Made by a program: the position numbers and the translations under genes. A DNA stretch of 64,000 nt from an uncultured delta proteobacterium (lineage in GTDB: Bacteria > Desulfobacterota > Binatia > UBA9968): contig CAWFJP010000014.1 of the NCBI GenBank assembly GCA_963816145.1, positions 352,001 to 416,000 of the forward strand. The letters are read 5' to 3'. Position 1 is the stretch's first letter, and each line of letters opens with the position of its first letter. Shown one piece after another: positions 3,175-58,772 of this stretch. The notes under the pieces were generated by a model. The model had not been told where the DNA came from, searched no databases, and saw nothing but the letters and a program-made list of their open reading frames with translations.

Positions 3175-3203
3175 TTAGATGTTGCGGGGCGCGGGTTGGG
3201 TGC
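3175..3203 (-). promoter_or_regulatory. Putative ECF promoter GCACCC-N16-CATCTAA upstream of MOSC
   Basis: Matches recurrent motif; 10 nt before ATG; its TAA is the stop codon of the upstream remnant. Confidence 0.6.
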
Positions 3204-6337: not shown

Positions 6338-6366
6338 TTAGATGCGCGAGAGCATCGATAGGATGC
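6338..6366 (-). promoter_or_regulatory. Putative ECF promoter GCATCC-N16-CATCTAA upstream of GMC oxidoreductase
   Basis: Intergenic, about 55 nt before ATG. Confidence 0.7.
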
Positions 6367-7001: not shown

Positions 7002-7030
7002 TTAGATGCAAAATGGTGCGTGAAGGATGC
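7002..7030 (-). promoter_or_regulatory. Putative ECF promoter GCATCC-N16-CATCTAA upstream of DM13 gene
   Basis: Both boxes identical to the 6338 site with an unrelated spacer. Confidence 0.7.
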
Positions 7031-11995: not shown

Positions 11996-13108
11996 TCAAT
12001 GCAGCAGCATGTGGGCGACGACTTCGAACGCAACGATCCCGAGCGTGATCACCGATGCGACGAGCACGAACGTGGTGCGCTGCTTTTCCAACGTGGTCAT
12101 GGTCTTGAGTTGTTCGGGGACTTTCGCTTCACTTCTAAGCTTTCTCGCATGCCAGACCGTGTAGAAGTTCGCTAGAGCGGCGAGGGTCGTTAATATCAGC
12201 ACCGGAACGCGCAAGCTACTTTGATCGAGAAACGTCAGCAAGCCGGCCAGGCCGAAAAGGCTGCCGGCTCCGAGCGCGACCGCCAACGGACCGATCAGAG
12301 TGACCACCGCACAAGGGGCGCCGAGGATGCCGAAGACGATTGCGCCAATGCTGGTTTTTTCTCCCGCGGACGATTCCGGTGGATCGCCGATCAATCGCAC
12401 GGCTTGATTGGCGTGCAGACGATAGGCGGTCACTGGATCGCGAAAACCCTTGAGAATAACCTGTTCGGAGGTTGCCTCGGTGAAGTCCACGGGATGTTTG
12501 CGATAACTTTCCTCGCTGATGAGCACTTCGCCGGCGCTGGCTTTGCTTTGCAGGCGCGCCGCGAGGTTAACGACGTCGCCGATCGCCGTATAGTCCTTTG
12601 AGTCGTCGGAACCCAAGCGACCGACACGGGCGAAGCCGGTGGCGATGCCTATGGAAGCCTTCAAGTTCAAGCCAAAATTCGCACCGAGAGTCGTTAGCGC
12701 CGCGCTCAGTTCGATCGCCGCGGCCACGGCGCGCAAGGCGTGGTCGTCGTGGCGCAGCGGCACGTTGAACAGCGCCATGACCGCGTCGCCGACATATTTG
12801 TCGATGAAGGCGCCATGCTTGACCAGTACTTCGGTTGCCATGCGCAAGAAGGCATCGACGACTTCATGGGTTTTCTCCGCGCCCAAATCTTGAGTCAGCT
12901 CGGTGAACGACGACAGGTCGGCGAACAGCACAGTGATCTCCACCATGCGCCCTTCTTCGACATGGGTGCTGCAGCGGGTGCAGATGTTCGGATTGCGCGG
13001 GCTGCGCTTGATGCCGAAGGTACGGTAGACCGCGCTCAGCGCGCCGGACAGCATGGTGCCGCAGACGCTGCATTGTGCCGCCAGTCGCGGGCTCGAATGG
13101 ACATGCAT
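11996..13108 (-). CDS. Class III adenylate/guanylate cyclase with N-terminal CxxC..CxxC and C-terminal 3-TM domain
   Basis: VLFADLSSFT, DKYVGDAVMALF, YTAIGDVVNLAARLQ. Confidence 0.88.
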   Translation of the reverse strand: MHVHSSPRLAAQCSVCGTMLSGALSAVYRTFGIKRSPRNPNICTRCSTHVEEGRMVEITVLFADLSSFTELTQDLGAEKTHEVVDAFLRMATEVLVKHGAFIDKYVGDAVMALFNVPLRHDDHALRAVAAAIELSAALTTLGANFGLNLKASIGIATGFARVGRLGSDDSKDYTAIGDVVNLAARLQSKASAGEVLISEESYRKHPVDFTEATSEQVILKGFRDPVTAYRLHANQAVRLIGDPPESSAGEKTSIGAIVFGILGAPCAVVTLIGPLAVALGAGSLFGLAGLLTFLDQSSLRVPVLILTTLAALANFYTVWHARKLRSEAKVPEQLKTMTTLEKQRTTFVLVASVITLGIVAFEVVAHMLLH

Positions 13109-29624: not shown

Positions 29625-30647
29625 ATGAAACGCATCGTTATTTGTTTCGATGGGACTTGGAACAAGCCGGCGGATGAGTCGCTGCCGGCCGATCGGCAGG
29701 TGGAAACCAATGTGCGGCGATTTTACGAGTCGGTGCGGCCGCAGTCCGCGGATGGCGTGAAGCAAGTTAAATGGTACGACGAAGGCGTCGGCACTAAATG
29801 GTACGATCAGGTAATCGGCGGCGGTATTGGCTCCGGATTGGAGATGAATATCGTTCAGGGCTACGAGTTCTTGGCCAAGGAGTACGAGGAAGGCGACGAG
29901 ATTTATGTACTCGGTTTTAGCCGCGGCGCGTACACGGCGCGCAGTTTGGTCGGGATGGTGCGTAACTGCGGTCTCATCCAGGCCAAGCATCTTGGGCTAC
30001 GTACCGTGATGGCCTACGGAATTTATCGCACGCGGGGTGATAAAGCCGATTCCGTCACGGCGAAGCTGTTCCGGTCATCGTTTAGCCGCGAAGTGAAGAT
30101 CAAATTCATCGGTGTTTGGGATACCGTCGGCGCGCTCGGCGTACCGCTCGACATTCTCAAAGATGTGAACATGAAGTTTTACGAGTTCCACGACACCAAT
30201 CTCAGCGGCATCGTTGAAAATGCTTATCACGCGATGGCGGTCGACGAGCATCGACAAGACTACGATGTCTGCCGCTGGAATCCGGTGGAAAAGCCGCAGC
30301 AGAATATTGAGCAACGCTGGTTCATCGGCGCGCATTGCGATGTCGGTGGCGGCTACCCGGACCGGCGCTTGTCCGACATAGCGTTACGCTGGATTCAGGA
30401 CAAAGCGAGCGAGTTGGGTTTGGCGCTCGATGCCGTCAATATCGACGCGAAGATTTATCTCGGTGAATACACCGACTCCTACGCCGAGTTTCTTAAGGGC
30501 CTCTACGCCAAACGCATTGCCCGCCACTACCGTCCCATCGATATCGCTAAGTTTGGCAACGAAGTCGTCGATCCGTCGGTGCAACAGCGCCGCAAAGATG
30601 ATCGTGACTACGAGCCGCAAAACGATGGGATGCCGAAGCTCGGGTAA
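29625..30647 (+). CDS. DUF2235 alpha/beta hydrolase (Tle1-like)
   Basis: CFDGTWN, GFSRGAYTAR, GVWDTVGALG, GAHCDVGGG. Confidence 0.92.
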   Translation: MKRIVICFDGTWNKPADESLPADRQVETNVRRFYESVRPQSADGVKQVKWYDEGVGTKWYDQVIGGGIGSGLEMNIVQGYEFLAKEYEEGDEIYVLGFSRGAYTARSLVGMVRNCGLIQAKHLGLRTVMAYGIYRTRGDKADSVTAKLFRSSFSREVKIKFIGVWDTVGALGVPLDILKDVNMKFYEFHDTNLSGIVENAYHAMAVDEHRQDYDVCRWNPVEKPQQNIEQRWFIGAHCDVGGGYPDRRLSDIALRWIQDKASELGLALDAVNIDAKIYLGEYTDSYAEFLKGLYAKRIARHYRPIDIAKFGNEVVDPSVQQRRKDDRDYEPQNDGMPKLG

Positions 30648-31969: not shown

Positions 31970-33223
31970 CTACTGCGGCTTGGGCCTGACCCACGGCTTT
32001 GCCAGCAGGCTGTACAAGATTCCCGACAGAAAAAACATCACGACTAGCCCCCAAAGCATCGGTTCGTAGGTGTGCCAGCGGTCCCAGATCGCGCCCGCGA
32101 CCACCGGGCCGGTGACGCTGCCCCAGACGTAAAATACGCTCATGTAGCCGCGAATCTTGGCGAAGTGTTTGCGGCCGAAGATATCGCCGACCATCGCCCA
32201 CGCGACCGGGTAGGTTGATTCGACGGTGGTAAACAACAGGACGAAGAGTAAGAGCGGTGCCATCGATGAGCCGAAGATCGGCAATAAGATCGACGCGCCG
32301 GCGACAAATAGGATCGCCGCGATCATTCGCGGCTTGTTCATCGAGTCGGCGAGCCAGCCCAACAGCACCGTCGAGGTGAAGCCGAGAAAAGCAAAGGCGC
32401 TCAATAGAAACGTCGCCTGCTGCGCGCTCATGCCTTTCCAGATCATCATCGGGATGAAATGGGTCGAGATCGCGTGGTACGAGGCGTTGCGTACGGCGGC
32501 GCCGAAGACCAGCGCCCAGAAGGCAAATGAGCGCATCGCTTGACGCGGTGTGATGGCGATTTCCACGCCGCCGTCCTGCGCGCTGGTGCGAACGTGAAAA
32601 GCCTCCTGAGTCTCGCCGTCCGGCAGCAACCCCATGCTCTCGGGTGAACGGCGAATAGTGAGACAGATCGGGATGCCGACCACTAAAAATATAATTCCTG
32701 CGAAGGCCGCGCCCCAGCGCCAACCCCAGCTGTTGACGATCATGCTCAGGATCGGCGCGATCAGCACGCCGCCGAGGCCGTAGGCCGCGCTGTTAATCGT
32801 CATGGCGCGGGCGCGCCAGCGGATGAACCAAGTATTGATCAGCGTCATCGGCGCGTGCATGAATCCGCCGGAGTGGGTGAGCGAGATCAGCACGGTGTAA
32901 ACCAGAACGAAGCTCCAGTAGCTGTCGACTTGCGAAAGCAGCAGATAGCCGATGCCCATGAGCGAAACTGACGCGATCATCACCGGACGCGGACCGTAGC
33001 GCTCGAGCAAGTGGCCGACGATCGGTCCCTCGATGGCGCCTTCGGCGCGCGACAATGAGAACGCGAACGACGTCGCCGTGCGGCTGAGGTTTAATTCTTG
33101 ACTGAGCGGCAGGAAGAAGACCGTGAAGCCGTAACTATGCAGTCCGGCGCCGAGCAAGCGCACAGCGGCGGAAGCGCCGACCATATGCCAGCCGTAAAAA
33201 AGGCCGAAAAACTTTTTGAACAT
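31970..33223 (-). CDS. MFS transporter
   Basis: About 12 TM; close paralog of 35925..37181. Confidence 0.9.
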   Translation of the reverse strand: MFKKFFGLFYGWHMVGASAAVRLLGAGLHSYGFTVFFLPLSQELNLSRTATSFAFSLSRAEGAIEGPIVGHLLERYGPRPVMIASVSLMGIGYLLLSQVDSYWSFVLVYTVLISLTHSGGFMHAPMTLINTWFIRWRARAMTINSAAYGLGGVLIAPILSMIVNSWGWRWGAAFAGIIFLVVGIPICLTIRRSPESMGLLPDGETQEAFHVRTSAQDGGVEIAITPRQAMRSFAFWALVFGAAVRNASYHAISTHFIPMMIWKGMSAQQATFLLSAFAFLGFTSTVLLGWLADSMNKPRMIAAILFVAGASILLPIFGSSMAPLLLFVLLFTTVESTYPVAWAMVGDIFGRKHFAKIRGYMSVFYVWGSVTGPVVAGAIWDRWHTYEPMLWGLVVMFFLSGILYSLLAKPWVRPKPQ

Positions 33224-39925: not shown

Positions 39926-39954
39926 TTAGATGCGCCGCCGGCGCTGAAAGGTGC
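39926..39954 (-). promoter_or_regulatory. Putative ECF promoter GCACCT-N16-CATCTAA upstream of spondin gene
   Basis: Recurrent motif, intergenic. Confidence 0.65.
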
Positions 39955-41934: not shown

Positions 41935-43755
41935 TTATCGACCGATCGGTGCCAGGTCTGATCGCCGGACACATTCAATGGCATGCGATAGAGAGTGTCC
42001 TGCGCGGTGATGTAGAGCGTCTTGCCGTCGGCGCCGCCCCAGGCGATGTTGTGCGGATGTCTTCGGCGCCATGATCGTGCCGAGGTGTTTGCCTTCGGCC
42101 GAGATCATCCAGATACCGCCGGGGCCGCAGACGTAGAGGTTGCCGTGCTGATCGACTTTGATGCCGTCGATCGCGTCTTCGCCGGGCGCTTGGGTCATGT
42201 CGAAGAAGACTTTGCCGTTGGAGGCGTTGCCGTCGCGCGTCGATGTCATAGCGCATGACGATCTTTTTTCGTCGGATCCCAGTTGCCGACGTAGAGAAAT
42301 TTCTCGTCCGGTGAGAAGGCGATACCATTGGGACCTTTGAGATCGGTGCTGACCAGTTTCAGCTTGCCATCTTTCAGGCTGAAGACGCCGCTGTAGGGCA
42401 GTTGTTTTCGCGGATCGTCGTAGAACTTGGGCAGACCGAAGGGCGGATCGGTGATGAACAGAGCGCCGTCGGAGCGATAGACCAGATCGTTGGGACTATT
42501 CAGCCGCTTGCCTTCGAAGTTGTCGGCCAGCACGGTGATGCGCCCGTCATTTTCCATGCGCACGACGCGGCGATTGCCGTGCTGGTTGATCGTCAGCCGG
42601 CCGTGTTTGTCGAGGGTGAGGCCGTTGGAACCAGGCTGGCCGTATTCGGCGATGTCCTTGCCCGACGTAACCGCTCTGGGTCTTGAAGTACCGACAGTTG
42701 CCCTTCCGGGCTCGTATTTGTAAATCTTGTTGGCGTTGGGATCACTGAAGAGCAGAATAGCCGGGCTTTGACCCAGATCGGACCCTCGGTGAATTGAAAA
42801 CCTTCGGCGAGTTTAAAGATCTTCGGATTGAGCGGCACGATGGCATCGATGGCAGGATCGACACGCTCGACGTCGACGTTGACTTCCTGCGGCGCGACGG
42901 CAACCGGTCCGGCCGGGACTTTGTGGAATTCCAAGCGGCGTAGCGCATCCAGATATAGTTGGTCGGCGGCTGCGATAGCGGACCGTTGACGCCGAAGATG
43001 GCGAACTGGATGGTTTGCCCGGGCTTGACGCCGCGGCCGACGACTAGACGATTCGCCGCGTTCCAGCCTTTGATCACCGAGCCGCCACTCTGGCCCGTCG
43101 CACGCGGCAATTCGCCGTCGACCCAGATCTCGGCGTAGTCATCGAGCGAAGTCGCGAACACGACCGTCGAGCCGGTCGGATCGAAGTTGCCGATGCGCTC
43201 GGGGACGGTGATCTTGATTCGATACCAATTGAAGGAGAGCCTGCCGTTGGTACGCCGTTTGTCCAGGTTGGTCGGTTCGATTACTTCCCAATTGGAGTCG
43301 TCGAAATCGGCCCGTCCGGCATGCGGCGTGATGTCGTAGGTCTTGTTCGGCGTCGTCGACGGTTGTCCGTCTGCGCCGACGGCTTTGAAATCGACTTCGA
43401 TGATCTTCGTGTCGCTGTAGCGCCACTGGGCTTTGACCAGTTCGGTGCCGGCTTTGGTGCCGAGGTCGATGCGCGCTTCGGGGATGCGTTTACCGAGAGT
43501 CTCGTCGAGGGCGGCGGCGTGAATTGATTTCGGCAGCCAAAGTGAAATTGCCGCCACCAGGGTTGCCGCAGTGAGCCTTATGGTGGCGCTCCGAGCCTGC
43601 TCTCGCTGGAGGGGCGCGGATTGACGGGAGAGTGCTGGATGGATATTACCCCTCACCCTCGCCCTCTCCCGCAAGGGGAGAGGGAACCGGAACAGCGGAC
43701 AGGATAAACGCTGCGAGAGTGAATTATATGAGTGAAAAAGGTTCTTCGATGTCAT
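41935..43755 (-). CDS. Large SMP-30/gluconolactonase with N-terminal sugar-binding jelly-roll domain (several frameshifts)
   Basis: ADFDDSNWEVI, LSFNWYRI, DDYAEIWVDG, then FTEGPIW, NSPNDLV, PNGIAFSPDE, DGIKVD. Confidence 0.82.
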
Positions 43756-45203: not shown

Positions 45204-45232
45204 TTAGATGCGCGGTGTCGCCAAAGAGATGC
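45204..45232 (-). promoter_or_regulatory. Putative ECF promoter GCATCT-N16-CATCTAA upstream of GlcG operon
   Basis: 35 nt before ATG. Confidence 0.7.
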
Positions 45233-47284: not shown

Positions 47285-47313
47285 TTAGATGCCGCGGGCG
47301 GCGTGATCGGTGC
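47285..47313 (-). promoter_or_regulatory. Putative ECF promoter GCACCG-N16-CATCTAA upstream of nucleotidyltransferase
   Basis: Recurrent motif in intergenic gap. Confidence 0.65.
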
Positions 47314-47936: not shown

Positions 47937-47977
47937 GGAGAACCTTCCGATTTTTGTTTGACGCTACACCTCTCCGT

Positions 47978-48767
47978 TTAGCTGTGGAAGGGCGGTTTGC
48001 CGCAGAAGATGCAGCGCTTGGGATTATCATGATGCAACTTGGCGCAGGCGACGCGTGAAACGCCTTGCTTTCGGACATAGACTTCGGCAGCGGCGAGCAT
48101 GCCGATCAGCGGTGCTGTGAAATAAACCCACAGGCTCGTCCAAGAGTTCCCGACTAACGCCGAGGCGAAGCTGCGCGCCGGATTCATGCTCATGCCCGAG
48201 ATCGGCGCTTCGAGCGTAATGTAAGTCGCTACCAATATGCCGGCGCACACACCGGTGAATTTATGCAGCTTGGCGTGACTCGACACATGCAAAATGACCG
48301 TCATGAGAATGAAGCTGATAATAACTTCGGCGCTGAACGCTGCGAGAGCGCCCCACGCACCAGGAATGGTCACGACATAATTGACCGACGCATGCGCCGC
48401 CCTGGGATGAAGCAACTGTGCTGCGGCGATGCGCACCGATGGTGCCGCCGAGAAATTGCCCGGCGACGTAAAAGACCGCGTCCCACCTGGCGACCTTGCC
48501 GAGCCTAAAAAAAGTTAAGGTCGTCGCCGGATTGATGTGCGCGCCGGATTGTTGGCCCCAGGGGGAATATATGATGGCGATCGCCGTGCCGCCCATCGCC
48601 AGGCCCATCAAGAAACGGCGCAGTGTGGCATTAGCGATAGCCTGGTGGACGGCGGAGGATGGGTGTTCGAGCAGGGTGGCGAAGCTGAACGCCGAGATCA
48701 TGAACAGACCCAGGCAAATCGCTTCGATCAAGTATTCCGGCCAGTGGTGTTTGAGAGCATCCGCCAT
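47978..48767 (-). CDS. Aquaporin (MIP family), frameshift near 48435
   Basis: SGAHINPA and SMNPARS; Cys/His-rich C-terminal tail. Confidence 0.9.
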
Positions 48768-48868: not shown

Positions 48869-49982
48869 TTAATTCAGTTGGATTACATTTTTGATCCCGG
48901 TGGCTTTGCCGAGCAGCAGCTCGCGATGGTCGGCCATGGCAAAGCGGCCGGTGATCAAAGATTTGACCGCCTCGGGCCAGCTGTCGTTGAAGGTCTGCAA
49001 CTCACGAATCGCAGTTTCGAAGGTATCGCGTCCGGCGTTGACGGTGCCGAAGACCACTTGGTTCTTGAGTACCAGATTGCGCATCATTAGATCGGTGTCG
49101 ACTTCCACCGGCCCTTTGCGGCCGGGAACGCCGGTAAAAATAAAGATGCCGTTGGTGCCGAGATATTGCATCATGTCGAAGGACAAGCGCGACGCGCCGG
49201 TGGCCTCGTAGACCAAGTCGACGTTGCCGATCTCCGACCGCCAATTGTTCGAGCGAATGGGTCTGCGCCGAGCGGTATTGGGCGCCAATCATTTCGGCGA
49301 CGGCGGATTTGGCATTGGGGGCCGGTTCGCGGGCGTAAACGTAGGTGTCGAAATCGGCATTCACCAGAGCCATCGCTCCTAAGAGTCCGACTGGACCGGC
49401 GCCCAGCACCACGGCTTTATGGCAGTGAGCCTGGGCTTTGCCCGGCGCCACAGAGCACCCCCAAGGCAACCGTTGCTGGATGTTCCAGACCTGGGCCAAA
49501 CCTTTTTCCGCGATGGTGAGCGGCTCGACGAGAACGGCGATGTCGCGCAGAGCCGTGGGCACGAGGTTCATAAATTTTTCATCGTCGACGACAAACTGCG
49601 CCATGAAGCCGTGCTGCTCTTTAATCCCCCGTTCGGTGAAATCGCCGGTGAAGCAAAAGTCCTGGCGGCTTGCGCGGCAGGCCATGCAATAATCGTGGGG
49701 GCAGGGACGGCGCACCATTGGCACCACCAGGTCGCCGACTTTGACCCTGGTAACATTGGCGCCGACCTCGACGACTTCGCCAAGCGATTCATGACCGATC
49801 ACGAGATCCGCCATGCCGGACGGCGGCGTGCCATATTCGAAGGAGCAGATTTCCCGGTCGGTGCCGCAGACACCCGCTTCGACCATGCGCAGCTTGACGT
49901 CGGTGGGCGATGACAGTTTGGGTTCGGCCAGGTCGATCAGCGAAACAGCTTTGCTTGACGCGGTGACAGCGATGGCGCGCAT
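48869..49982 (-). CDS. Zn-dependent glucose 1-dehydrogenase (MDR, archaeal-type), frameshift near 49235
   Basis: GVCGTDREI, GHESLG, VRRPC, TERGIK, EPLTIAEK, GAGPVG, VFGTVNA. Confidence 0.85.
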
Positions 49983-50097
49983 GGTGTGCTCCTATATTTT
50001 TGTACTCCGAAATAGTTAAATCGTTAGTTCGAATCGCGGGAAAGTTTGGCAGGGAAATCCACCGACAATCAGCCGCCTGCCTTGCAATTGTAACTTC

Positions 50098-50126
50098 TTA
50101 GATGAGGCTGGTCGGAGAATAGTTGC
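50098..50126 (-). promoter_or_regulatory. Putative ECF promoter GCAACT-N16-CATCTAA upstream of glucose dehydrogenase
   Basis: Recurrent motif, intergenic. Confidence 0.7.
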
Positions 50127-50157
50127 AGCTCAATCGATCTGGCAGCCGGATCGAATG

Positions 50158-50418
50158 CTACGGCCGTAGCGTCAAATGCAACGGCGGCTGGTTCGGCAAG
50201 TGTCCGCGCAGAAAGCTCCGGCTCAATTCGATGGTCTTTTTGTAGGTTGCCAAAAATGCGCCGCAGTCTCGGCAGGCGCTCAGGTGGTTTTCGAACGCTA
50301 GGCGATCGGATCTGCTCAGATTGTTAGTGAGATAATCGCTGATCAGACTGACTTCGTCTCGACAGGTCGAGATCGGGCGGTGAGCGCTGCGGTTTTTTCT
50401 GGCTGGCTTCGAAATCAT
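50158..50418 (-). CDS. zf-HC2 (ZAS) anti-sigma-like protein 2
   Basis: TC...ISDYL...FENHLSACRDC...YKKT. Confidence 0.85.
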   Translation of the reverse strand: MISKPARKNRSAHRPISTCRDEVSLISDYLTNNLSRSDRLAFENHLSACRDCGAFLATYKKTIELSRSFLRGHLPNQPPLHLTLRP

Positions 50419-50514
50419 GTGTGTATCCGGCGCGGCGGCGGTGCTATTTCACCCGGTGAATGGTCACCTGATCAGCTCGGCCCTTGGTATCCTCAGAGCA
50501 ATTTTGGAGTTGCC

Positions 50515-50739
50515 CTAAGCGCATGCCGCGCCACGCCGCCTCGGTCTGCCGCTGGCCAGACGTACCGGCGCTAATTTATGACCGAATCGGACGCGATATG
50601 AGGAGAATATATTTTCTAGACTCTCGATCACCGAAGCATCGTCCGTGGTCTGGCTGGTCAGCGCCTGTAAGATTTCCAGCAAATTCGTCTTGATTGTCGT
50701 GGCTTTGATTTTTACGTAGTTGTTTCGGCTGGTTTTCAC
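50515..50739 (-). CDS. Hypothetical small protein (74 aa)
   Basis: GTG start with GGGAGGGG RBS, directly after motif at 50774. Confidence 0.7.
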   Translation of the reverse strand: MKTSRNNYVKIKATTIKTNLLEILQALTSQTTDDASVIESLENIFSSYRVRFGHKLAPVRLASGRPRRRGAACA

Positions 50740-50773
50740 GTGGGACCCCTCCCTGTTGGTTGCATTCCTACAG

Positions 50774-50802
50774 TTAGACGTGTGTTCTTGGAAATAGGTT
50801 TC
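50774..50802 (-). promoter_or_regulatory. Putative ECF promoter GAAACC-N16-CGTCTAA
   Basis: Classical ECF AAC/CGT arrangement. Confidence 0.72.
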
Positions 50803-51069
50803 AGATTATCCAGGTTTTCTTACGCCGCCGCAGCCAGACCTGCGGGACGGCTATAAATCTCCGGGCTCTCGACCGATTCGTACATTAGCCCGAGACCTAG
50901 GTTTCCTTAGCGCATCGTCCGAAGATCTTGCGAGCCGTCATGTCAGTGCCAATGCGGGCCACCGCGCGATTCCCCGGAAAGTGGCGCCGCGTTAGCGATT
51001 CATATCAGTTGGTTAATGTTTCAATCCAGGGTGTTGGGAATCCCTCACCTTTAGGCGAAGCGAGGATTT

Positions 51070-51153
51070 GTCATGCCGGCGCAGGCGGCATCTATCGTTG
51101 GTTACATTGGAAGGCCGAAGAAAACCTGGATTCCGGCCTGCGCCGGAATGACG
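51070..51153. repeat. REP doublet copy 5
   Basis: GTCATGCCGGCGCAGGCGGCATC...TGGATTCCGGCCTGCGCCGGAATGACG. Confidence 0.78.
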
Positions 51154-51215
51154 AAAGAGAGTGTCGACTTCCAGTCGACGAATTCAGAACCCATTGGCTT
51201 GGAGCCGAGGGTGAT

Positions 51216-51389
51216 TCAGTTTCGGCTGGCGTTATCGGTCTGGGTTGGTTGACGCTTACGCAGATAATTCCGGCGCGCCTGCAACCAAGTGGCGCTTGGC
51301 CACTCCCAGCGCAGGTGCGGCAGTTCGTGCTCGTCGTAGTAGCCGTCATTGACCGGGCTTTGGCTGAAAATCGCTTCCCAGGAATTCAT
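51216..51389 (-). CDS. Hypothetical 57-aa Trp-rich protein
   Basis: MNSWEAIFSQ...; GAGGAG RBS; downstream of motif at 51460. Confidence 0.55.
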   Translation of the reverse strand: MNSWEAIFSQSPVNDGYYDEHELPHLRWEWPSATWLQARRNYLRKRQPTQTDNASRN

Positions 51390-51459
51390 GGTTATTGCTC
51401 CTCGTCTAGGGTCTCGACGTTGTTGCTGTGCCAAGGGGTCGGCCGTCAGCATTTGTCGG

Positions 51460-51488
51460 TTAGACGCTAGTGGAGCTGTTTTCGGTGC
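51460..51488 (-). promoter_or_regulatory. Putative ECF promoter GCACCG-N16-CGTCTAA
   Basis: Recurrent motif, intergenic. Confidence 0.62.
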
Positions 51489-51587
51489 GGGTAGTCGATA
51501 TGCGTTGTCATTTCGAGCGCAGCGAGAAATCTCTTCGCCTTGCGGCTCAGGAAGGAATATGCAACAGAACCAAGTCGCGAACGGCGA

Positions 51588-51908
51588 TTACGCCGCCAGC
51601 TGGCAAATCTGGGTAATCAGGTATAAAACGATGGCGCTGATACGGCGGAGTTTTTTGCGCAGGAAGCCGAGAACGTTGTCGCGCACTTTGGGCGGAATCT
51701 CTTCCGTATGCAAAGTCGCCGTGCTTTGCACGGTCTTTTTGTAAGTATTCACAAAACTGACGCAGTCGGGACAGATGCTCAGGTGCCTGGCAAATTCCTG
51801 CTTAACGGTTGGGCTGAGTTTGTCGGTCAGGTAGTCCAACATCAGATCCGCGATCTGTTTGCAGGTTTTTGCGGACAATGGGCGGCGTGTGGTTTTTACT
51901 TGGGGCAT
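51588..51908 (-). CDS. zf-HC2 (ZAS) anti-sigma factor 1
   Basis: TCKQIADLMLDYL...FARHLSICPDC...YKKT; directly after the ECF sigma gene. Confidence 0.88.
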   Translation of the reverse strand: MPQVKTTRRPLSAKTCKQIADLMLDYLTDKLSPTVKQEFARHLSICPDCVSFVNTYKKTVQSTATLHTEEIPPKVRDNVLGFLRKKLRRISAIVLYLITQICQLAA

Positions 51909-51922
51909 CGGTGACTCTTTCT

Positions 51923-52633
51923 TTACGCTGCGGAGTAGCCGAGTTGGACGGCCAGTTTGCCGCGCAGGAACAGGCGCGCGCGATGCAGCCGGGTCTTGAC
52001 TGCCGAGACGGTCAAGCCGGTGGCAGCGGCGATTTCCTTGTCGGACAAGCCTTCGAGATCGCTCAAGACGATGACGGTTTTGTCTACCGGCTTCAATTGA
52101 TCGAGGGCTCTGGCGATCAGACCCTGGGTTTCGCTCTTGGCGTAGTGTTCGTCGAGGGTATCCGACCAGTCGACCACCGGCCGCATTCGGTGGTGGCCGT
52201 CGTCTTGAAACTTGGGCAAAAATTCATCGTAGGCCACTTCCTTGGATTTCTTGCTGCGGCGAATCCGACCCAAAGCTGCGTTGACGGTGAGCCGATAGAG
52301 CCAGGTGGAGAATTGCGAATGGCCCTGGAACAAATGGGCTTTGCGGAACGCGGTATGAAAAACGTCCTGGATCACTTCTTCGGCATCCGGAGCATCGCCG
52401 CCGAGTATGCGCAAGGCGAGGTTGTAAAGTTTGCCCGAGTAGAGATGGAAAATATTCTCCAGCGCGTCGTGATCGCCGGCCTTGAGGCGCTCGATCAAGC
52501 CGGTATCGGCTTCGGCGCCTTTGGCGCGACGTGTCGGTGCGCTCGAGCGAACCACACCGCGCTGTGGCAATGGCCGAGCCATCCGTGTCTCGGTGAGCTT
52601 GGGAGTGATGGCGAAGTTGGTTTCGCGGGACAT
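51923..52633 (-). CDS. ECF RNA polymerase sigma-70 factor
   Basis: DAEEVIQDVF, FSTWLYRLTVN, EGLSDKEIA, VKTRLHRARLFLR; GAGGAG RBS. Confidence 0.93.
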   Translation of the reverse strand: MSRETNFAITPKLTETRMARPLPQRGVVRSSAPTRRAKGAEADTGLIERLKAGDHDALENIFHLYSGKLYNLALRILGGDAPDAEEVIQDVFHTAFRKAHLFQGHSQFSTWLYRLTVNAALGRIRRSKKSKEVAYDEFLPKFQDDGHHRMRPVVDWSDTLDEHYAKSETQGLIARALDQLKPVDKTVIVLSDLEGLSDKEIAAATGLTVSAVKTRLHRARLFLRGKLAVQLGYSAA

Positions 52634-52680
52634 AAGAATCTCCTCGTTTGCTGTAATCGACTCGGCAAAACTTCTTTGAA

Positions 52681-52965
52681 TCATTCCGCTAACTCCCCTT
52701 TGGCAATTGTCTCTAAGAGCGTAGCGATGAACGGCGAGCAGTTGATGATCCGCAGTTTTTCATTGCTCATATCGATCAAACCGCGCGCCGCTTGATCGTT
52801 CATGAACTCGACTCCCGCCATGTCCAAGATGACGGTGCATTCGACGCCGTCGCGATGCGCCGTACAGGCATCGGTCAAGTCGCTAAAGGCCTCATTCGAT
52901 AGGGTACCGTCGAGACGCAGGCGAACGGTGTTGCCAGTTTCAAAGCTTTCGGTGATTTTGAGCAT
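52681..52965 (-). CDS. STAS domain protein
   Basis: LRLDGTL, ILDMAGVEFM, NCSPFI. Confidence 0.82.
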   Translation of the reverse strand: MLKITESFETGNTVRLRLDGTLSNEAFSDLTDACTAHRDGVECTVILDMAGVEFMNDQAARGLIDMSNEKLRIINCSPFIATLLETIAKGELAE

Positions 52966-53000
52966 TTACGGTAACTCCCTGTGAACTGTTAAGCTTATAG

Positions 53001-53016
53001 AGCAGGGCTCGTGCCA
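53001..53016 (-). promoter_or_regulatory. Sigma54 -24/-12 promoter TGGCACGAGCCCTGCT
   Basis: GG-N10-GC, one mismatch to TGGCACG-N4-TTGCW; divergent from an enhancer-binding protein gene. Confidence 0.8.
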
Positions 53017-53081
53017 ATAAGCTAACTAATTGGAATTACGCATTTTTTAAATTTTAGGTCGCCTACTGGTTGTGGTATTTC

Positions 53082-53118
53082 GTCGCGATATTTCGCAACG
53101 GTTGTGAAATATCACAAT
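53082..53118. promoter_or_regulatory. Putative upstream activator sequence (double palindrome)
   Basis: GTCGCGATATTTCGCAAC-G-GTTGTGAAATATCACAAT, 66-102 bp upstream of the -24 box. Confidence 0.6.
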
Positions 53119-53169
53119 CGGGGGTAGTAACGGGGGAGTTGGGGATCTATCGCAGAATTTGGAGCGATT

Positions 53170-56100
53170 ATGGCGGGAGAAAAACTGGCGGATGTGGACT
53201 TGGGAGGCACCCAGAGCGGCTGGCCCGAATCGGCGCATGTCGCGTACTTTTGGAACACCGCAGAAGAATTCTCTGACGGCGTCACGTTTCTTGAAGTCGG
53301 CCTGCGTGGCGCAGATCACGGCGTAATCTTCGGCCACGACGATGCTAACCGTGAGGTTTGCCGGATCCTCGAAAGTCGCGGTTTGGATCTCACCCAGCTC
53401 GCTGCCGATGGTCGGCTAACGATTTTGCGCGGCCACCCCGATGTCGACCAGATGCTCGATGAGATCGGTCAAGCCTTCGAGCGCGCACTTGCGGGCGGTG
53501 CCAGCCTGGTTCGGCTGTTGGGCAATATCGGCTGGAGCCACGCTGATTGGCCCGATGAACAGGCTTTGCTCAGGTTCGAAGCACGAGTCACCGACGCAGC
53601 GAAACAGTTTCCCTGCGTGGTGGTCTGCATGTATGACGTCGCGGGTCTGCCGGGGACCATCGTCCATCATGGCGGGCTCGGCACCCATCCGCATGTACTT
53701 CGTAACGGTCATCCGCAGAACAACCCGCAATATCTTCCGCTGGATATTTTCTTGCGCCGAATTGAAACTCTGGCTGGCGCCATCGGCGAGCGCCGGCGCC
53801 ACGACGAGACGCTGCACCATATTACCGAAGGCACGGTGCAGTTCATCGGCGACGAATTTTTTCGCCAGTTGGCGCGCCATTTGGCTGACGCACTGCATGT
53901 CCGTTATTGTTTCGTCGCCGAATGCACCGACGACTCGCAAACGCGGCTGCGCGCGCTGGCGTTCTGGGACGGTCAAGGGTTCGCGCAAAACGTCGAGTAT
54001 CCGATACGCGGCACTCCCTGCGAAAAAGTCATCGAGGGCAACATCTGTTCCTATCCGGATCGGATTCAACAACTCTTTCCGGAGGACCAAGATCTGGTCA
54101 CCCTCGGCGCCGAAAGCTACGCCGGCGTGCCGTTGCCGAACTCACAGGGAAAGGTGCTTGGCCACTTGGTGGTGATGGACAACCGGCCGCGCCACTTCGA
54201 CGAAAATGAGCTGCGCGTATTGCGTATCTTCGCCAACCGCGCCGGCATCGAACTCGAAAGGTTGCGCGCCGATCGCAAGGTCAGCCAGCTCAATGGCGAA
54301 CTGACCGCGCTGCTCGAAATCAACCGCGCCATCGGCCGCCAACTGGAGCGCGAGCATTTATTTGGCGCGCTGTCCGATTGCTTGAAAAGCGTCGTGCCGA
54401 CCGAACGATTCGGCATCGAAATTCCGCTCGACGGTAACCGCCTCGAAGGGCATATTCTTTCCAATGGCGCGTCGATCGGCGCGCCCACCGAGCCGACGAT
54501 TTTGCCGGCTGCCGGAACCGCGTGTGATTGGGTGCTGCAAACGCATCAATGGTTTATCGCCGGCAGTCGCGACGAGTTTCGCGACCGCTTTCCGGTCACC
54601 TACAGGGTCATGAGCGAGCAAGGCATGGAATCGCTGTGCGCCGTCGCCTTGGTCAGCGGCGGGCGCAACCGTGGCGCGCTGTTTTTCATGGCGTCTGTCA
54701 AGGATGCCTATCGCGATTTGCGCCGTAACTTCATCGAACAGGTCGCCAATCAAATCGCCCTCGCCATCGAAAACGTCAACTCCTACGAAGAAATCGCGGC
54801 ACTCAATCAAAAGATCGCGGCGACCGCAGCGCGCCGGCAAACTCTGCTCGAAGTCAACAATGCGATTGTCACCAAGCTGACCAGGGAGGAGCTTTTGGCG
54901 GTGGCCTGCGACGCTCTTAGCAAGGTGATCTGGTTCGACCGGCTGGCGCTTTCCCTCTACGATCCCGCCATCGAATCTCTGCGGATTGTCGCTTGCGCCG
55001 GTCCTTATCAGCGGCAGGACTATTCGCCGATCGGACGTCAGCTGAAGCTTGACGATAGTCCGGCGGGGCAAGCGTTTCAGAGCCAGCGGCCGATACTGTG
55101 CGGCGATCTTGAAACCGAGCGCCGGACCGCCTCCGAGGAGCGCGCTTACGGCCACGGCTTCCGCTCCATCTGTGTCCTGCCCTTGGTTGTTCATGGCAGA
55201 TCTCTCGGGGCGATCACCGTCGGCAGCCTGACCCGTTGCCAATATTCCGCAGCCGACGCCGAGTTTCTCATGGAGGTGGCTAATCAGATCGCCATCGCGG
55301 TTGAGAATATGCAGCTGCACGAAGAGACCGCCGCTTTGAAAGCACGCTTCGAAGCCGAGACGGTTTACTTGCAGGAAGAGATCAAGACCGAACACAATTT
55401 CGAAGAGATCATCGGCCAGAGCGAAAAGGTGCGCGAGCTGCTGCGCAAGGTCGAACAGGTCGCGCCCACCGACGCTTCGGTTTTGATCTGCGGCGAGACC
55501 GGCACCGGCAAGGAGTTGTTGGCGCGCGCGGTGCACGATCGCAGCAAGCGCAAAGATCGCGCCTTGGTGAAGGTGAACTGCGGCTCGATTCCGTCCGGCT
55601 TGGTCGAAAGCGAGCTGTTCGGCCACGAAAAGGGCGCCTTTACCGGTGCCATGCAGCAACGCATCGGCCGCTTCGAGCTCGCCCACGGCGGCACGATCTT
55701 TCTCGACGAAGTCACCGAGCTGCCGCTCGATACTCAAGTGAAACTCTTGAGAGTGTTGCAAGAAGGGGAGTTCGAGCGGGTCGGCAGCAGCAAGACGATG
55801 AAAGTCGACGTGCGCGTGATCGCCGCGACGAACCGCGATCTGAACCAGGTAGTCAGCAAGGGCAGTTTCCGCGCCGACTTGTATTATCGTCTTAATGTTT
55901 TTCCGCTCGAATCGCCGGCGCTGCGCGATCGCAAGGACGACCTTCCCTTGTTGGTGAGTTTTTTCTTGAGCCGTTTCGGCAAGAAACTCGGCAAAGAGGT
56001 GCGCGGCGTGGCGCAAAAATCGATGGAGAGTCTAGTTCGCTACAACTGGCCAGGCAACATTCGCGAACTGCAAAACGTCGTCGAACGCGCGGTGGTGCTG

Positions 56101-56337
56101 GCCCGCGGCCCGGTGGTGCAAGTGGACGAATCGATGCTGCGCAGCGACTCGGCCGCGGCGGCGGAAGTTTCGGCCATCGATACGTTGGAAAATAACGAGC
56201 GCAATCATATCCTGCACGCTCTGGCTGAAACTAATTGGGTGATCCATGGCAAAAAAGGCGCGGCAGAGCTGCTTGGCATCAATCCCAGCACGTTGCGCTC
56301 GCGCATGGATAAACTTGGCATCAAGCGGCAGGCGTGA
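53170..56337 (+). CDS. Sigma54-dependent activator (FhlA-like): MEDS + 3 GAF + AAA+ + Fis HTH
   Basis: N-terminal HVAYFW...CMYDV...THP (MEDS-like); GETGTGKE, GAFTGA, RADLYYRL, WPGNIRELQN, GAAELLGINPSTL. Confidence 0.92.
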   Translation: MAGEKLADVDLGGTQSGWPESAHVAYFWNTAEEFSDGVTFLEVGLRGADHGVIFGHDDANREVCRILESRGLDLTQLAADGRLTILRGHPDVDQMLDEIGQAFERALAGGASLVRLLGNIGWSHADWPDEQALLRFEARVTDAAKQFPCVVVCMYDVAGLPGTIVHHGGLGTHPHVLRNGHPQNNPQYLPLDIFLRRIETLAGAIGERRRHDETLHHITEGTVQFIGDEFFRQLARHLADALHVRYCFVAECTDDSQTRLRALAFWDGQGFAQNVEYPIRGTPCEKVIEGNICSYPDRIQQLFPEDQDLVTLGAESYAGVPLPNSQGKVLGHLVVMDNRPRHFDENELRVLRIFANRAGIELERLRADRKVSQLNGELTALLEINRAIGRQLEREHLFGALSDCLKSVVPTERFGIEIPLDGNRLEGHILSNGASIGAPTEPTILPAAGTACDWVLQTHQWFIAGSRDEFRDRFPVTYRVMSEQGMESLCAVALVSGGRNRGALFFMASVKDAYRDLRRNFIEQVANQIALAIENVNSYEEIAALNQKIAATAARRQTLLEVNNAIVTKLTREELLAVACDALSKVIWFDRLALSLYDPAIESLRIVACAGPYQRQDYSPIGRQLKLDDSPAGQAFQSQRPILCGDLETERRTASEERAYGHGFRSICVLPLVVHGRSLGAITVGSLTRCQYSAADAEFLMEVANQIAIAVENMQLHEETAALKARFEAETVYLQEEIKTEHNFEEIIGQSEKVRELLRKVEQVAPTDASVLICGETGTGKELLARAVHDRSKRKDRALVKVNCGSIPSGLVESELFGHEKGAFTGAMQQRIGRFELAHGGTIFLDEVTELPLDTQVKLLRVLQEGEFERVGSSKTMKVDVRVIAATNRDLNQVVSKGSFRADLYYRLNVFPLESPALRDRKDDLPLLVSFFLSRFGKKLGKEVRGVAQKSMESLVRYNWPGNIRELQNVVERAVVLARGPVVQVDESMLRSDSAAAAEVSAIDTLENNERNHILHALAETNWVIHGKKGAAELLGINPSTLRSRMDKLGIKRQA

Positions 56338-56367: not shown

Positions 56368-57042
56368 TCAAGTTCCAACGCTTCGGATCCTGGCACTTCG
56401 TGCCAACTCGTCTATGGAACGTTTTGAACGACTGGAACGATTGGAAGCTTTGGAACTTCCTAACGATAGTGATGCCCAGCTTGGCGACCAGACCGATAGC
56501 CCAACAGAAGCAGCCAGCACCGCGCCGTACTGAACCGGGCGGCGGATATCGGCTTTGACCAACCAATAGAAGTGCACCACGCCTAACATTGCGATCCCAT
56601 AGACGAGATAGTGGAGTTGTTGCCAGCGTTTGCCGAGGCGCCGGATCATCGCCGCGTTCGAAGTCAGCGCCAGCGGGATCATCAACACCAGCGCGCTGAA
56701 GCCGACCGTGATATAGGGCCGCTTCAAGATATCTTTGCCGATGGCGGAGAAATCGAAAAACAGATCGAGCACCATGTAGGTGGCGAAGTGGAGGGCGGCA
56801 TAGAAAAAAGCGAACAAGCCGAGCATGCGGCGTAATTTTATCAGCTCGTTCCAGCCAGTGAGCTTCCGTAGCGGCGTGACCGCCAAGCTTGAGAGTAAAA
56901 TTAGCAATGCATAGGAGCCGGTGAAGCGGGTGATGTACTCGATCGGGTTGGCGGTCAGATTGTCGCTGTAATAATTAAAGACAAGCTGGCCTAATGGAAT
57001 AAGACAGATCAGAAAGGCGGCGGATTTGACCAGGCGAAACAT
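56368..57042 (-). CDS. msrQ: Methionine sulfoxide reductase heme subunit MsrQ (3' frameshift, end uncertain)
   Basis: LAVTPLR, RRMLGLFAFFY..LHF, KRPYITVG, WQQLHYLVY. Confidence 0.9.
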   Translation of the reverse strand: MFRLVKSAAFLICLIPLGQLVFNYYSDNLTANPIEYITRFTGSYALLILLSSLAVTPLRKLTGWNELIKLRRMLGLFAFFYAALHFATYMVLDLFFDFSAIGKDILKRPYITVGFSALVLMIPLALTSNAAMIRRLGKRWQQLHYLVYGIAMLGVVHFYWLVKADIRRPVQYGAVLAASVGLSVWSPSWASLSLGSSKASNRSSRSKRSIDELARSARIRSVGT

Positions 57043-57161: not shown

Positions 57162-58124
57162 TCAGTAATATTTTTTCAGGTCCATGCCGCTGTACAAGCT
57201 TGCGACTTGGTCGCCATAGCCGTTGAACATCAGGGTTTTGCGCCGGCGGAATTCGCCGATGCGCCGTTCAGTGGCCTGGGTCCAGCGCGGGTGATCGACT
57301 TCGGGATTGACATTGGAGTAGAAGCCGTACTCTTGCGGCTGCATCATGTTCCACGACGCGGCTGGCTGCTTTTCGACGAAGCGGACTTTGACGATCGACT
57401 TGATGCTCTTGAAGCCATATTTCCAGGGTACGACGATGCGGATCGGCGCGCCGTTCTGGGCCGGCAGGACCTCACCGTAAAGACCGACCGAGAGAATCGT
57501 CAGAGGATGCATCGCCTCGTCCATGCGCAATCCTTCGACATAGGGCCATTCCAAGGTCGCAAGTTTTTGACCAGGCAGCCGTTTGGGATCGTTGAGGGTG
57601 ACGAACTGGATGAACTTGGCGTTGCCGGTGGGCTCGGCCTGCTTGATCAGCGAACTGAGCGGAAAGCCTATCCACGGAATCACCATCGACCAGGCTTCGA
57701 CGCAACGCAGGCGGTAGATTCGTTCTTCCAGCGGCGCTAATTTAGTCAGTTCTTCGATGTCATAGGTTTTGACTTTCTTGACTTCGCCCTCGACTGCGAC
57801 TGTCCATGGACGAGTGGTGAGATACTTGGCGTTGGCTGCCGGATCTTCTTTGTCCGGGCCAAGTTCATAGAAATTATTGTAGTTGGTGATTTCTTTCAGC
57901 GTGTTCAGTTTTTCGTTGGTGCTGAACGAACTCTTCTTGACGTTGGCAAGTTTCTCGGCGCCGTACGCCGAGGCGAAATCCTTGCCGGGCTCGATGCCGC
58001 TGAGAATCGCGCCAGCGCCTAGCGCCATGGCGGACGCCGAAAGCATGAACTGCCGGCGGTTCAGGTAGTGCTCTTTGGGGGTGATCTCCGCCGACTTGAT
58101 GTCGGCAGGCTTTTTAATAAGCAT
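57162..58124 (-). CDS. msrP: Methionine sulfoxide reductase molybdo-subunit MsrP
   Basis: Tat [42 protein letters not shown]. Confidence 0.96.
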
Positions 58125-58155: not shown

Positions 58156-58677
58156 CTATTCAGCGATCAGTTGTTTGATCGTCGCTTCGGTTACGCTGTA
58201 GGCGCCTTCGCCAATATGGCTGTAACGAATTACGCCCTTTTTGTCGACCAGCACGATGGTTGGCCAAGCCCAGACGCCGTAGCGGTGCCAAATGTCAAAG
58301 TTGTTGTCTTGCACCACTGGGAACTTGATACCGAGACGCGCGGTCGCTTCCTTCACTTTGGCCAAGGGTTTTTCCCAGGGAAATTCCGGCGAATGGACGC
58401 CGACGATGGTCAACCCGGCTTGTTCAAACTTATCATGCCAACCCCGCAACTGCGAGATGATGTTTCTACAGTTGATTCAGCCATAGGTCCAAAACTCGAC
58501 CAAAATCACCCGGCCTTTGAGGCCTGTGATGTTGAGAGGTTTGCTGTTGATCCAGTTTTCGCCGGCGAGCTCGGGCGCAGGTGTACCGTTGGTGAGCGCC
58601 GTGCCGGCGCGCGGCCAAGCCGCCCAAAGCGCCAAGGCGAGAACGAGAGCCGTTGAAAAAGCTGCCAGACGTACCAT
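58156..58677 (-). CDS. Exported thioredoxin-like redoxin (DipZ/TlpA type) with UxxC, probable selenoprotein
   Basis: WINSKPL...[11 protein letters not shown](58477-58479)-INCRN...GVHSPEF...AWPT...HIGEGAY in one frame. Confidence 0.85.
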
Positions 58678-58743
58678 GATTTTGCCAGTTCTCTTTGCCC
58701 CGCCTGGCCGGATGAATCGCCGTGCCAAGCTATCGTTGTACGA

Positions 58744-58772
58744 TTAGATGACACCCAGCCAGTCCGGGTTGC
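58744..58772 (-). promoter_or_regulatory. Putative ECF promoter GCAACC-N16-CATCTAA upstream of trx-msrPQ
   Basis: Recurrent motif, 66 nt before ATG. Confidence 0.72.

Follow-up and report, generated by a model that had tools for sequence, protein, structure and literature searches.

Sigma factors of the extracytoplasmic function (ECF) type are usually described as autoregulated and as controlled only by an anti-sigma factor, and HrpL, the textbook exception that is driven by sigma54, has no anti-sigma. The locus described here appears to combine both layers of control. It lies in a 64,000-nucleotide stretch of DNA (C14:352001-416000, referred to below as the window) from the 7.8-Mb, 31-contig genome of an uncultured soil/wetland bacterium of the Binatia lineage, and comprises a gene for a sigma54-dependent activator, divergent from an operon encoding a STAS protein, an ECF sigma factor and an anti-sigma factor of the zinc-binding type (ZAS). 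Positions are those of the window unless a contig is named.

A sigma54-to-ECF cascade is already known in principle, and the closest precedent is HrpR/S-HrpL: HrpR and HrpS activate the sigma54 promoter of hrpL in Pseudomonas syringae, and HrpS activates HrpL in Pantoea/Erwinia (PMC8999054, PMC8103513, PMC5263251; articles are cited throughout from excerpts). As these excerpts describe it, the path leads from an enhancer-binding protein to a sigma54 promoter, an ECF sigma factor (ECF32) and a dedicated box before a gene cluster, as is predicted here. HrpL, however, has no anti-sigma and controls type III secretion, whereas the window ECF would be co-transcribed with a ZAS protein and a small STAS protein (mini-STAS) in a locus with two ZAS genes, the second of which is predicted to be under ECF control; the regulon would be one of redox and detoxification genes, and the activator carries GAF domains, accompanied in some loci by MEDS or PAS. 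HrpR and HrpS are not known to have sensor domains. A search of the literature outside subscription journals, supplements aside, brought up no account of an ECF that is driven by sigma54 and has either ZAS anti-sigmas or STAS as a partner.

SigF/NrsF (EcfF/OsrA) is an ECF system of oxidative and chlorine stress that controls the adjacent yedYZ (= msrPQ) genes and is subject to cysteine-dependent anti-sigma control (PMC4436054, PMC3511200). Its anti-sigma, NrsF, is a membrane protein of six helices, and sigF depends on SigF for its own transcription (PMC3511200); at the locus studied here, in contrast, the anti-sigmas are ZAS proteins of 86-106 aa, and the promoter ahead of the sigma operon is of the sigma54 type, with no copy of the ECF motif there. 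The -35 elements of the two systems are similar (GTAACC in Caulobacter, G[CT]AAC(C) here), unlike the -10 elements (CGAA versus C[AG]TCTAA). Small cytoplasmic ZAS proteins with a Cys...H-x3-C-x2-C motif, and a regulon including thiol and oxidation repair genes, are also found in SigR/RsrA and RpoE/ChrR, from which the present locus differs by its two paralogous ZAS proteins and its STAS partner; with the RsrA equivalog model, whose cut-off is 62.5 bits, the window anti-sigmas reach 22.1 and 18.3. SigR is autoregulated.

Layout of the locus and its sigma54 promoter

The genes at the centre of the locus, and the elements between them, are:

53170-56337, plus strand: sigma54 enhancer-binding protein, 1055 aa (Pfam, NCBIfam)
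53072-53115: putative upstream activator sites, two 12-bp palindromes and a degenerate third site (conserved in relatives)
53104-53115: activator-site palindrome, GTGAAATATCAC
53085-53096: activator-site palindrome, GCGATATTTCGC
53072-53083: degenerate third activator site, 13 bp beyond the second palindrome
53001-53016, minus strand: sigma54 -24/-12 promoter, TGGCACGAGCCCTGCT, with GG at 53015-53014 and GC at 53003-53002 (pattern and conservation)
52681-52965, minus strand: mini-STAS, 94 aa (Pfam, model fold)
51923-52684, minus strand: ECF sigma factor, sigma2 and sigma4 (Pfam, NCBIfam)
51588-51908, minus strand: anti-sigma 1, ZAS type (zf-HC2), 106 aa (Pfam)

The original prediction, made from the sequence of the window, described a 1055-aa activator with a GAFTGA motif, a MEDS domain and three GAF domains, encoded divergently from STAS, ECF and anti-sigma genes; the domain scan and the coordinates agree. 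The locus was compared with 11 loci of the same genus (12 with the window) and with a wider Binatia set, in which one genome per species was scanned with a STAS alignment, yielding 24 true loci; ten of these coincide with same-genus loci (L014 = L043, L015 = L048 and L021 = L038 are mentioned below). The window, the same-genus locus L024 and these 24 make up 26 distinct loci. L021 comes from a genome flagged as unpublished (G005), and every count given here stands without it. Gene order is the same in all 11 genus loci (10/10 without L021), the STAS and ECF genes are neighbours in 24 of the 24 wider loci, and in all 21 in which this could be assessed, the activator and STAS genes are arranged divergently. 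The linkage of activator, STAS and ECF, for which a synteny check had been proposed, is thus conserved in every assessable related locus.

The sigma54 promoter proposed at 53001-53016 has a single mismatch to TGGCAC-N5-TTGCW. A TGGCA[CT]-N5-nTGC element is present in 12/12 same-genus loci, with a GC-to-ATG distance of 29-37 nt and diverged flanks. The same pattern was found in 22 of the 24 wider loci, the other two being L033, which has a variant (TGGCGC-N5-TTGC), and L046, which could not be assessed with 28 nt of upstream sequence. The element is therefore kept at about -50 from the STAS start in all 25 assessable loci of the 26, and it is this conservation in position among relatives that argues for a real promoter, although a single match is not beyond chance. 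The predicted transcript start lies at about 52990, a ribosome-binding site (GGGAG) precedes the STAS ATG at 52965, and the stretch from the -12 element to this ATG showed no further conserved block. The genome encodes rpoN (TIGR02395, 453.6 bits versus a cut-off of 277), and of 15 ECF-type genes examined (the best 15 of 17 matches, two short open reading frames (ORFs) being left out), none but the window ECF has a sigma54 match in the 400 nt upstream. One other sigma54-like match with a single mismatch exists in the window, at 32247-32262 on the minus strand (TGGCACCGCTCTTACT), inside the ORF of an MFS transporter (31970-33223); it is probably due to chance.

The upstream palindromes follow the consensus GCGAAATATCGC and are fixed at -98/-99 and -79/-80 relative to TGGCAC. 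The putative activator sites precede the -24 element by about 70-100 bp, with an A/T-rich stretch between them and the promoter. With a strict pattern, at least two units were found in nine of the 12 genus loci, one in two, and none in L022, in which degenerate copies are visible by eye. Genome-wide, 156 single units were found, and the only pair within 45 nt is that of the 53072-53115 region, which makes the activator look like a dedicated local regulator. It may also regulate its own gene through the same sites, which is plausible because they lie 55-98 bp before its ATG. An AAA+ domain with GAFTGA and Walker A, a C-terminal helix-turn-helix, predicted upstream sites, a -24/-12 element and an rpoN gene are all characters of an enhancer-binding-protein system. 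The ECF motif described below is absent from the intergenic region between STAS and the activator (52966-53169, up to two mismatches) and from the matching region in 11/11 relatives, as had been proposed for the window.

An ECF-type promoter motif and the island that it precedes

An alignment of the region downstream of anti-sigma 1 across relatives revealed a shared box, G[CT]AAC-N17-CGTCTAA. When up to two mismatches were allowed, the motif search gave 15 matches in the window, all on the minus strand, versus 6.6 +/- 2.3 expected, and none of 100 shuffles reached 15. The exact pattern G[CA]A[ACT]C-N17-C[AG]TCTAA has 17 copies in the genome (about 8.6 being expected from base composition), 12 of which fall within 61 kb, at C14:350091-410772, all on the minus strand. 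The copies stand 7-115 nt before an ORF start, except for one just outside the window, at 105-227 nt. A looser pattern, AAC-N16-18-CGTCTA, was abandoned as too unspecific, because its 71 genome matches mixed in other ECF types, and was replaced by the -35-specific one. Control of the activator by the ECF was also considered and rejected, since there is no motif copy on the plus strand of the window. The ECF-type promoters found by the motif search, and the genes of the island discussed below, are all on the minus strand:

58744-58772: promoter GCAAC-N17-CATCTAA before redoxin-msrP-msrQ
58156-58728: redoxin-like gene, split
57162-58124: MsrP (484 bits versus a cut-off of 207)
56368-57042: MsrQ (195 bits versus a cut-off of 130)
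51460-51488: promoter GCACC-N17-CGTCTAA before orf67
51216-51389: orf67-family gene, 57 aa from an internal ATG, beginning MNSWEAIFSQSPVNDGYY (conserved in relatives)
50774-50802: promoter GAAAC-N17-CGTCTAA before orf74 and anti-sigma 2
50515-50739: orf74, conserved small protein (Atlas: 'hypothetical protein, Binatota')
50158-50418: anti-sigma 2, ZAS type (zf-HC2), 86 aa, soluble, about 1.2 kb beyond anti-sigma 1 (Pfam)
50098-50126: promoter before the Zn-alcohol dehydrogenase gene
48872-49982: Zn-dependent alcohol dehydrogenase, frameshifted relative to the intact L018 orthologue
47951-48767: MIP channel, frameshifted relative to the intact L018 orthologue
47285-47313: promoter before a nucleotidyl transferase gene
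45204-45232: promoter before an HbpS-like gene
39926-39954: promoter before a spondin-domain protein gene
7002-7030: promoter before a DM13 gene
6338-6366: promoter before a GMC oxidoreductase and glyoxalase-fold pair
3175-3203: promoter before a MOSC/YiiM-like gene

In the relatives, the box is found before orf74 in 11/11 loci, before the redoxin-msrP region in eight of the nine loci that extend so far, downstream of anti-sigma 1 in 7/11 and before the dehydrogenase in 6/9. From the location of the copies, we strongly infer that the window ECF reads the G[CA]A[ACT]C-N17-C[AG]TCTAA box. Two further ECF boxes, at C14:350091 and 351711, stand to the left of the window before ORFs of 300 and 444 aa, indicating that the regulon reaches beyond it. 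The two-tier wiring of the original prediction thus has good support from sequence comparison, with a predicted sigma54 promoter and upstream sites before STAS-ECF-anti-sigma and ECF-type promoters before everything else.

The gene content of the island points to oxidative, chlorine or electrophile stress, because it includes methionine-sulfoxide repair, a redoxin, dehydrogenases, a glyoxalase-fold protein and a MOSC protein, and this would agree with the ECF control of yedYZ/msrPQ reported for other bacteria (PMC4436054, PMC3511200). Several of the genes are interrupted. In the alcohol dehydrogenase, residues 1-248 and 249-370 lie in different frames, with a break at about 49238; the break in the MIP gene is at about 48410-48430; and an SGL-family gene (41975-42563), like the redoxin gene, also looks split. 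These four splits are due either to assembly indel errors or to real decay. In L015, from a close relative, stops or frameshifts interrupt the activator, ECF sigma, orf74 and the orf67 homologue, and msrPQ and the anti-sigma genes appear whole; decay there seems to affect the regulatory module as a unit.

The conserved blocks in the 1.2-kb gap between the two anti-sigma genes were considered as a possible RNA, a candidate that was rejected in favour of the two small ORFs, orf67 and orf74; an Rfam scan of 49900-53300 gave only a chance match to a plant miRNA (E 0.93). For orf67, there was no Pfam and no usable Atlas match. The non-conserved stretch between orf67 and orf74, at about 51100-51200, holds a short palindromic element, the two strands of which translate as ..IPAQAGIQ.. 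and ..IPACAGMT..; such peptides are characteristic of small repeat elements. The relatives lack this element, and their orf67-orf74 spacer measures 240-290 nt, versus 479 nt in the window. Elsewhere, a protein with a class III adenylate/guanylate cyclase domain is encoded at 11996-13108 (minus strand), between two groups of ECF-box operons and without a box of its own, and a type VI secretion Tle1-like phospholipase catalytic domain (268 bits) at 29625-30647 (plus strand) is unrelated to the circuit.

The activator, STAS, sigma and anti-sigma proteins

The activator consists of a MEDS domain (PF14417, residues 23-173, 68.9 bits versus a cut-off of 29.8), three GAF stretches (the best at 571-712), a Sigma54_activat domain (PF00158, residues 747-913, 249 bits) followed by AAA_lid_14, and an HTH_8 domain (residues 1005-1049, 34 bits), all identified with Pfam. 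Walker A (GETGTGKE, residue 775) and GAFTGA (residue 822) are kept in 11/11 orthologues. Of the NCBIfam equivalogs, FhlA, NifA and NorR score highest; they likewise combine GAF sensors with AAA+ and HTH_8, but the scores remain below the cut-offs for all three (464 versus 830, 423 versus 529 and 380 versus 476 bits, respectively), so that the protein is not an equivalog of any of them. Unlike these regulators, it would target a sigma factor operon, and the N-terminal modules vary among its orthologues.

This variation does not fit a cascade headed by MEDS, as first proposed. The domain is present in only four of the 26 distinct loci: the window, L014 (MEDS and GAF, 885 aa), L015 (in which stops interrupt the gene) and L041. 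The orthologues in L016, L017, L018, L020 and L021 have two GAF domains only (671-713 aa), that of L023 is GAF-only, without PAS or MEDS (854 aa), and those of L019, L022 and L024 combine PAS and GAF (952-1129 aa). MEDS-GAF and MEDS-PAS-GAF activators are common in metagenomes, where they made up the majority of the first 55 clusters in the search. The part common to all orthologous activators is the first GAF domain, in which two motifs with a cysteine, FVAECTD (Cys252) and GTPCEKV (Cys284) in the window protein (residues 248-287), are kept in most orthologues whatever the N-terminal module (F[VL][AT]EC.D in 9/11 and GTPC..V in 10/11, by strict pattern). These motifs could form a redox- or ligand-sensing site. 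On this comparison, in which other orthologues of the locus have sensors of the GAF-only or PAS-GAF kind, MEDS is a lineage-specific accessory, and the Cys-bearing GAF the conserved sensor. The model of the MEDS domain (pLDDT, a per-residue confidence score, 89.4) is KaiC/RecA-like by Foldseek (E 1e-6, template-modelling (TM) score 0.54-0.62), and no P-loop was seen in the MEDS sequence.

The STAS protein is recognised by PF01740 (24.3 bits versus a cut-off of 22.6), and its AlphaFold (AF2) model (pLDDT 81.5) has SpoIIAA (1th8/1tid), RsbV (6m36) and RsbS as top Foldseek matches (TM 0.73-0.78); a fold search was needed, as a sequence search of the PDB returned nothing meaningful (best E 0.28). 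The protein had been interpreted as a partner-switching anti-anti-sigma, and the fold agrees with this. The phosphorylation site does not: where four canonical STAS proteins have FMDSSG, the mini-STAS family has FM[NKHSQ][DENAGPT]..A, with D, E, N, A, G, P or T in different orthologues at the position of the serine, which is not conserved. Nor was an RsbW-type kinase (HATPase) or PP2C phosphatase found among the 67 distinct window ORFs scanned. The family also has a six-residue deletion and a shortened C-terminus. A profile search with it gave 681 representative clusters at E<=1e-3, mostly of 85-100 aa, and in 24/24 loci the STAS gene is the first of the sigma operon. A single complex prediction of ECF (residues 60-253), anti-sigma 1 (1-90) and STAS, made without controls, scored 0.00 against a mark of 0.32 and speaks neither for nor against binding.

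The ECF sigma factor (Sigma70_r2 48 bits, r4_2 58.7 bits, TIGR02937 84.9 versus 42.9) has sigma2 and sigma4 only, as in group 4. Its true start is likely to be Met18 at 52633, because of the alignment and of a GAGGAG ribosome-binding site ahead of it. Across 23 orthologues, the N-terminal 60 or so residues are not conserved, and the sigma2-sigma4 linker (residues ~150-185) is unusually long and near-invariant (EYEEFLPKFQ.DGHH.VRPVVDWSDTLDE), with a core conserved as DGHH..RPVVDWS. The window ECF contrasts in its control with an ECF gene on contig C13, where a TTAACC-N-CGTCTAA box (C13:221068-221095) coincides with the ORF start (C13:221085) and ordinary autoregulation seems to apply.

Both anti-sigmas match PF13490 (32.0 and 33.6 bits versus a cut-off of 22.2), and C16, H42, C46 and C49, the Cys...His-x3-Cys-x2-Cys signature of ZAS proteins, are invariant in 34/34 sequences from the two paralogue groups, in agreement with the proposal that the sigma factor is gated by Zn/Cys anti-sigmas. 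Anti-sigma 1 usually has a hydrophobic C-terminal tail. The ECF-type promoter ahead of anti-sigma 2 would fit negative feedback.

The proposed circuit and its alternatives

Taken together, the parts, promoters and feedback are probably those of a two-tier sigma54-to-ECF circuit. The sensor domains would restrain the AAA+ motor as long as there is no signal; once it comes, an activator hexamer at 53072-53115 would remodel the sigma54-RNA polymerase at 53001-53016. The opening of this promoter would allow mini-STAS, the ECF sigma factor and anti-sigma 1 to be transcribed as one unit. Since the sigma factor would be made together with its own anti-sigma, output would need a second event: oxidation or alkylation of the anti-sigma thiols, or neutralisation of the anti-sigma in another way, by STAS for example. 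The free ECF would then direct RNA polymerase to the motif promoters of about 12 neighbouring operons, and anti-sigma 2, driven by the ECF together with orf74, would reset the system in a negative feedback loop.

A number of observations weigh against this circuit. The bare sigma54 pattern is not enriched in the window (21 matches versus 32 expected with up to two mismatches, two of the 21 having one mismatch), and the -12 element reads CTGC where the consensus has TTGC. Co-location is what assigns the motif to the ECF, and several regulon genes (those of the alcohol dehydrogenase, MIP channel and redoxin) are frameshifted in the assembly. Anti-sigma 1 is absent from three of the 24 wider loci (L039, L044 and L046), so the two-anti-sigma design is not universal. 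The STAS operon may also have a second, constitutive promoter: no sigma70-like site was scored in 51400-53300, but by a simple and insensitive scan that also misses the activator's own promoter.

Possible traces of transcription come from assembled metatranscriptome contigs, from which no start, strand or level can be derived and in which uncovered stretches carry no meaning. Near-identical contigs of 150-275 nt from three studies cover parts of STAS (52771-52932), ECF (52294-52698), the activator (53631-53899 and 55010-55197) and the orf74 promoter region (50686-50859); they may reflect DNA carry-over and lend the circuit weak support. The high depth at 55421-55821 corresponds to the conserved AAA+ core of other organisms.

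A housekeeping promoter might instead keep the operon always on, the activator merely boosting it and control being exerted almost wholly by the anti-sigmas. Most ECF systems are indeed controlled after translation (PMC8103513), the sigma70 scan was crude, and the habitats whose metatranscriptome contigs overlap STAS and ECF are three and unrelated. The sigma54 element, the A/T-rich spacer and the activator sites, however, occupy the intergenic region, with no further conserved block, and neither the window nor the relatives have an ECF-type autoregulatory promoter, so that an always-on operon seems unlikely. Still less probable is that another sigma factor or regulator reads the motif and that the local ECF has other targets. 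The genome does hold about 15-17 ECF-type genes, and the -10-like CGTCTAA occurs with other -35 boxes elsewhere in it; the 12 of 17 exact copies nevertheless cluster around the window ECF, the sole sigma-70-family gene in C14:349-411 kb, the first of them 100 nt past anti-sigma 1 and another before the paralogous anti-sigma, and motif and ECF travel together in all relatives.

The input and the STAS partner can also be interpreted in other ways. MEDS might sense a small hydrocarbon derivative and be the primary input of the cascade. Its Pfam match is solid, MEDS regulators have been tied to dichloromethane and epoxyethane/ethylene gene clusters, with the sensing of small hydrocarbon derivatives put forward as a proposal that cites a 2005 description (PMC11507031), and Binatota are predicted to be methylotrophs and alkane degraders (PMC8262859). 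A hydrocarbon-derivative signal is a guess, given that only four of the 26 loci carry MEDS, with GAF-only or PAS-GAF sensors in use elsewhere, that a KaiC/RecA-like fold without a P-loop is uninformative as to the ligand and that the regulon resembles redox or electrophile repair rather than hydrocarbon catabolism; MEDS is unlikely to be the main sensor. Least credible of all is a classical STAS, an anti-anti-sigma controlled by phosphorylation like SpoIIAA/RsbV: the fold and the place of the gene at the head of the sigma operon speak for it, but the variable phospho-serine position, the kinase and PP2C phosphatase not seen in the window, and a TIGR00377 score of 17.6 bits versus a cut-off of 53.45 speak against it. 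The two-tier circuit, with a Cys-bearing GAF as the conserved sensor and a STAS protein of non-classical type, is thus preferred.

For the Binatia, these results predict a defined regulon that includes msrPQ, and they add a widespread mini-STAS family for which the classical phosphorylation mechanism would be impossible. Sequence comparison also indicates that sensor domains have been swapped at a fixed regulatory locus. It is unusual for every cis element of such a circuit to be recognisable and conserved across an uncultured class, and the circuit can consequently be rebuilt in Escherichia coli without culturing the organism. A more speculative possibility, doubtful as it stands, is a kinase-independent partner switch acting on an ECF, in which a non-phosphorylatable STAS, made upon sigma54 induction along with sigma and anti-sigma 1, would tie up anti-sigma 1 and leave sigma free for a short time, until the ECF-dependent anti-sigma 2 would reset the system, resulting in a signal-triggered pulse generator with swappable inputs. 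If this were true, species would have freely exchanged MEDS, PAS and GAF-only inputs while the Cys-bearing GAF core stayed constant, and different environmental cues would act on the same island of redox-repair genes.

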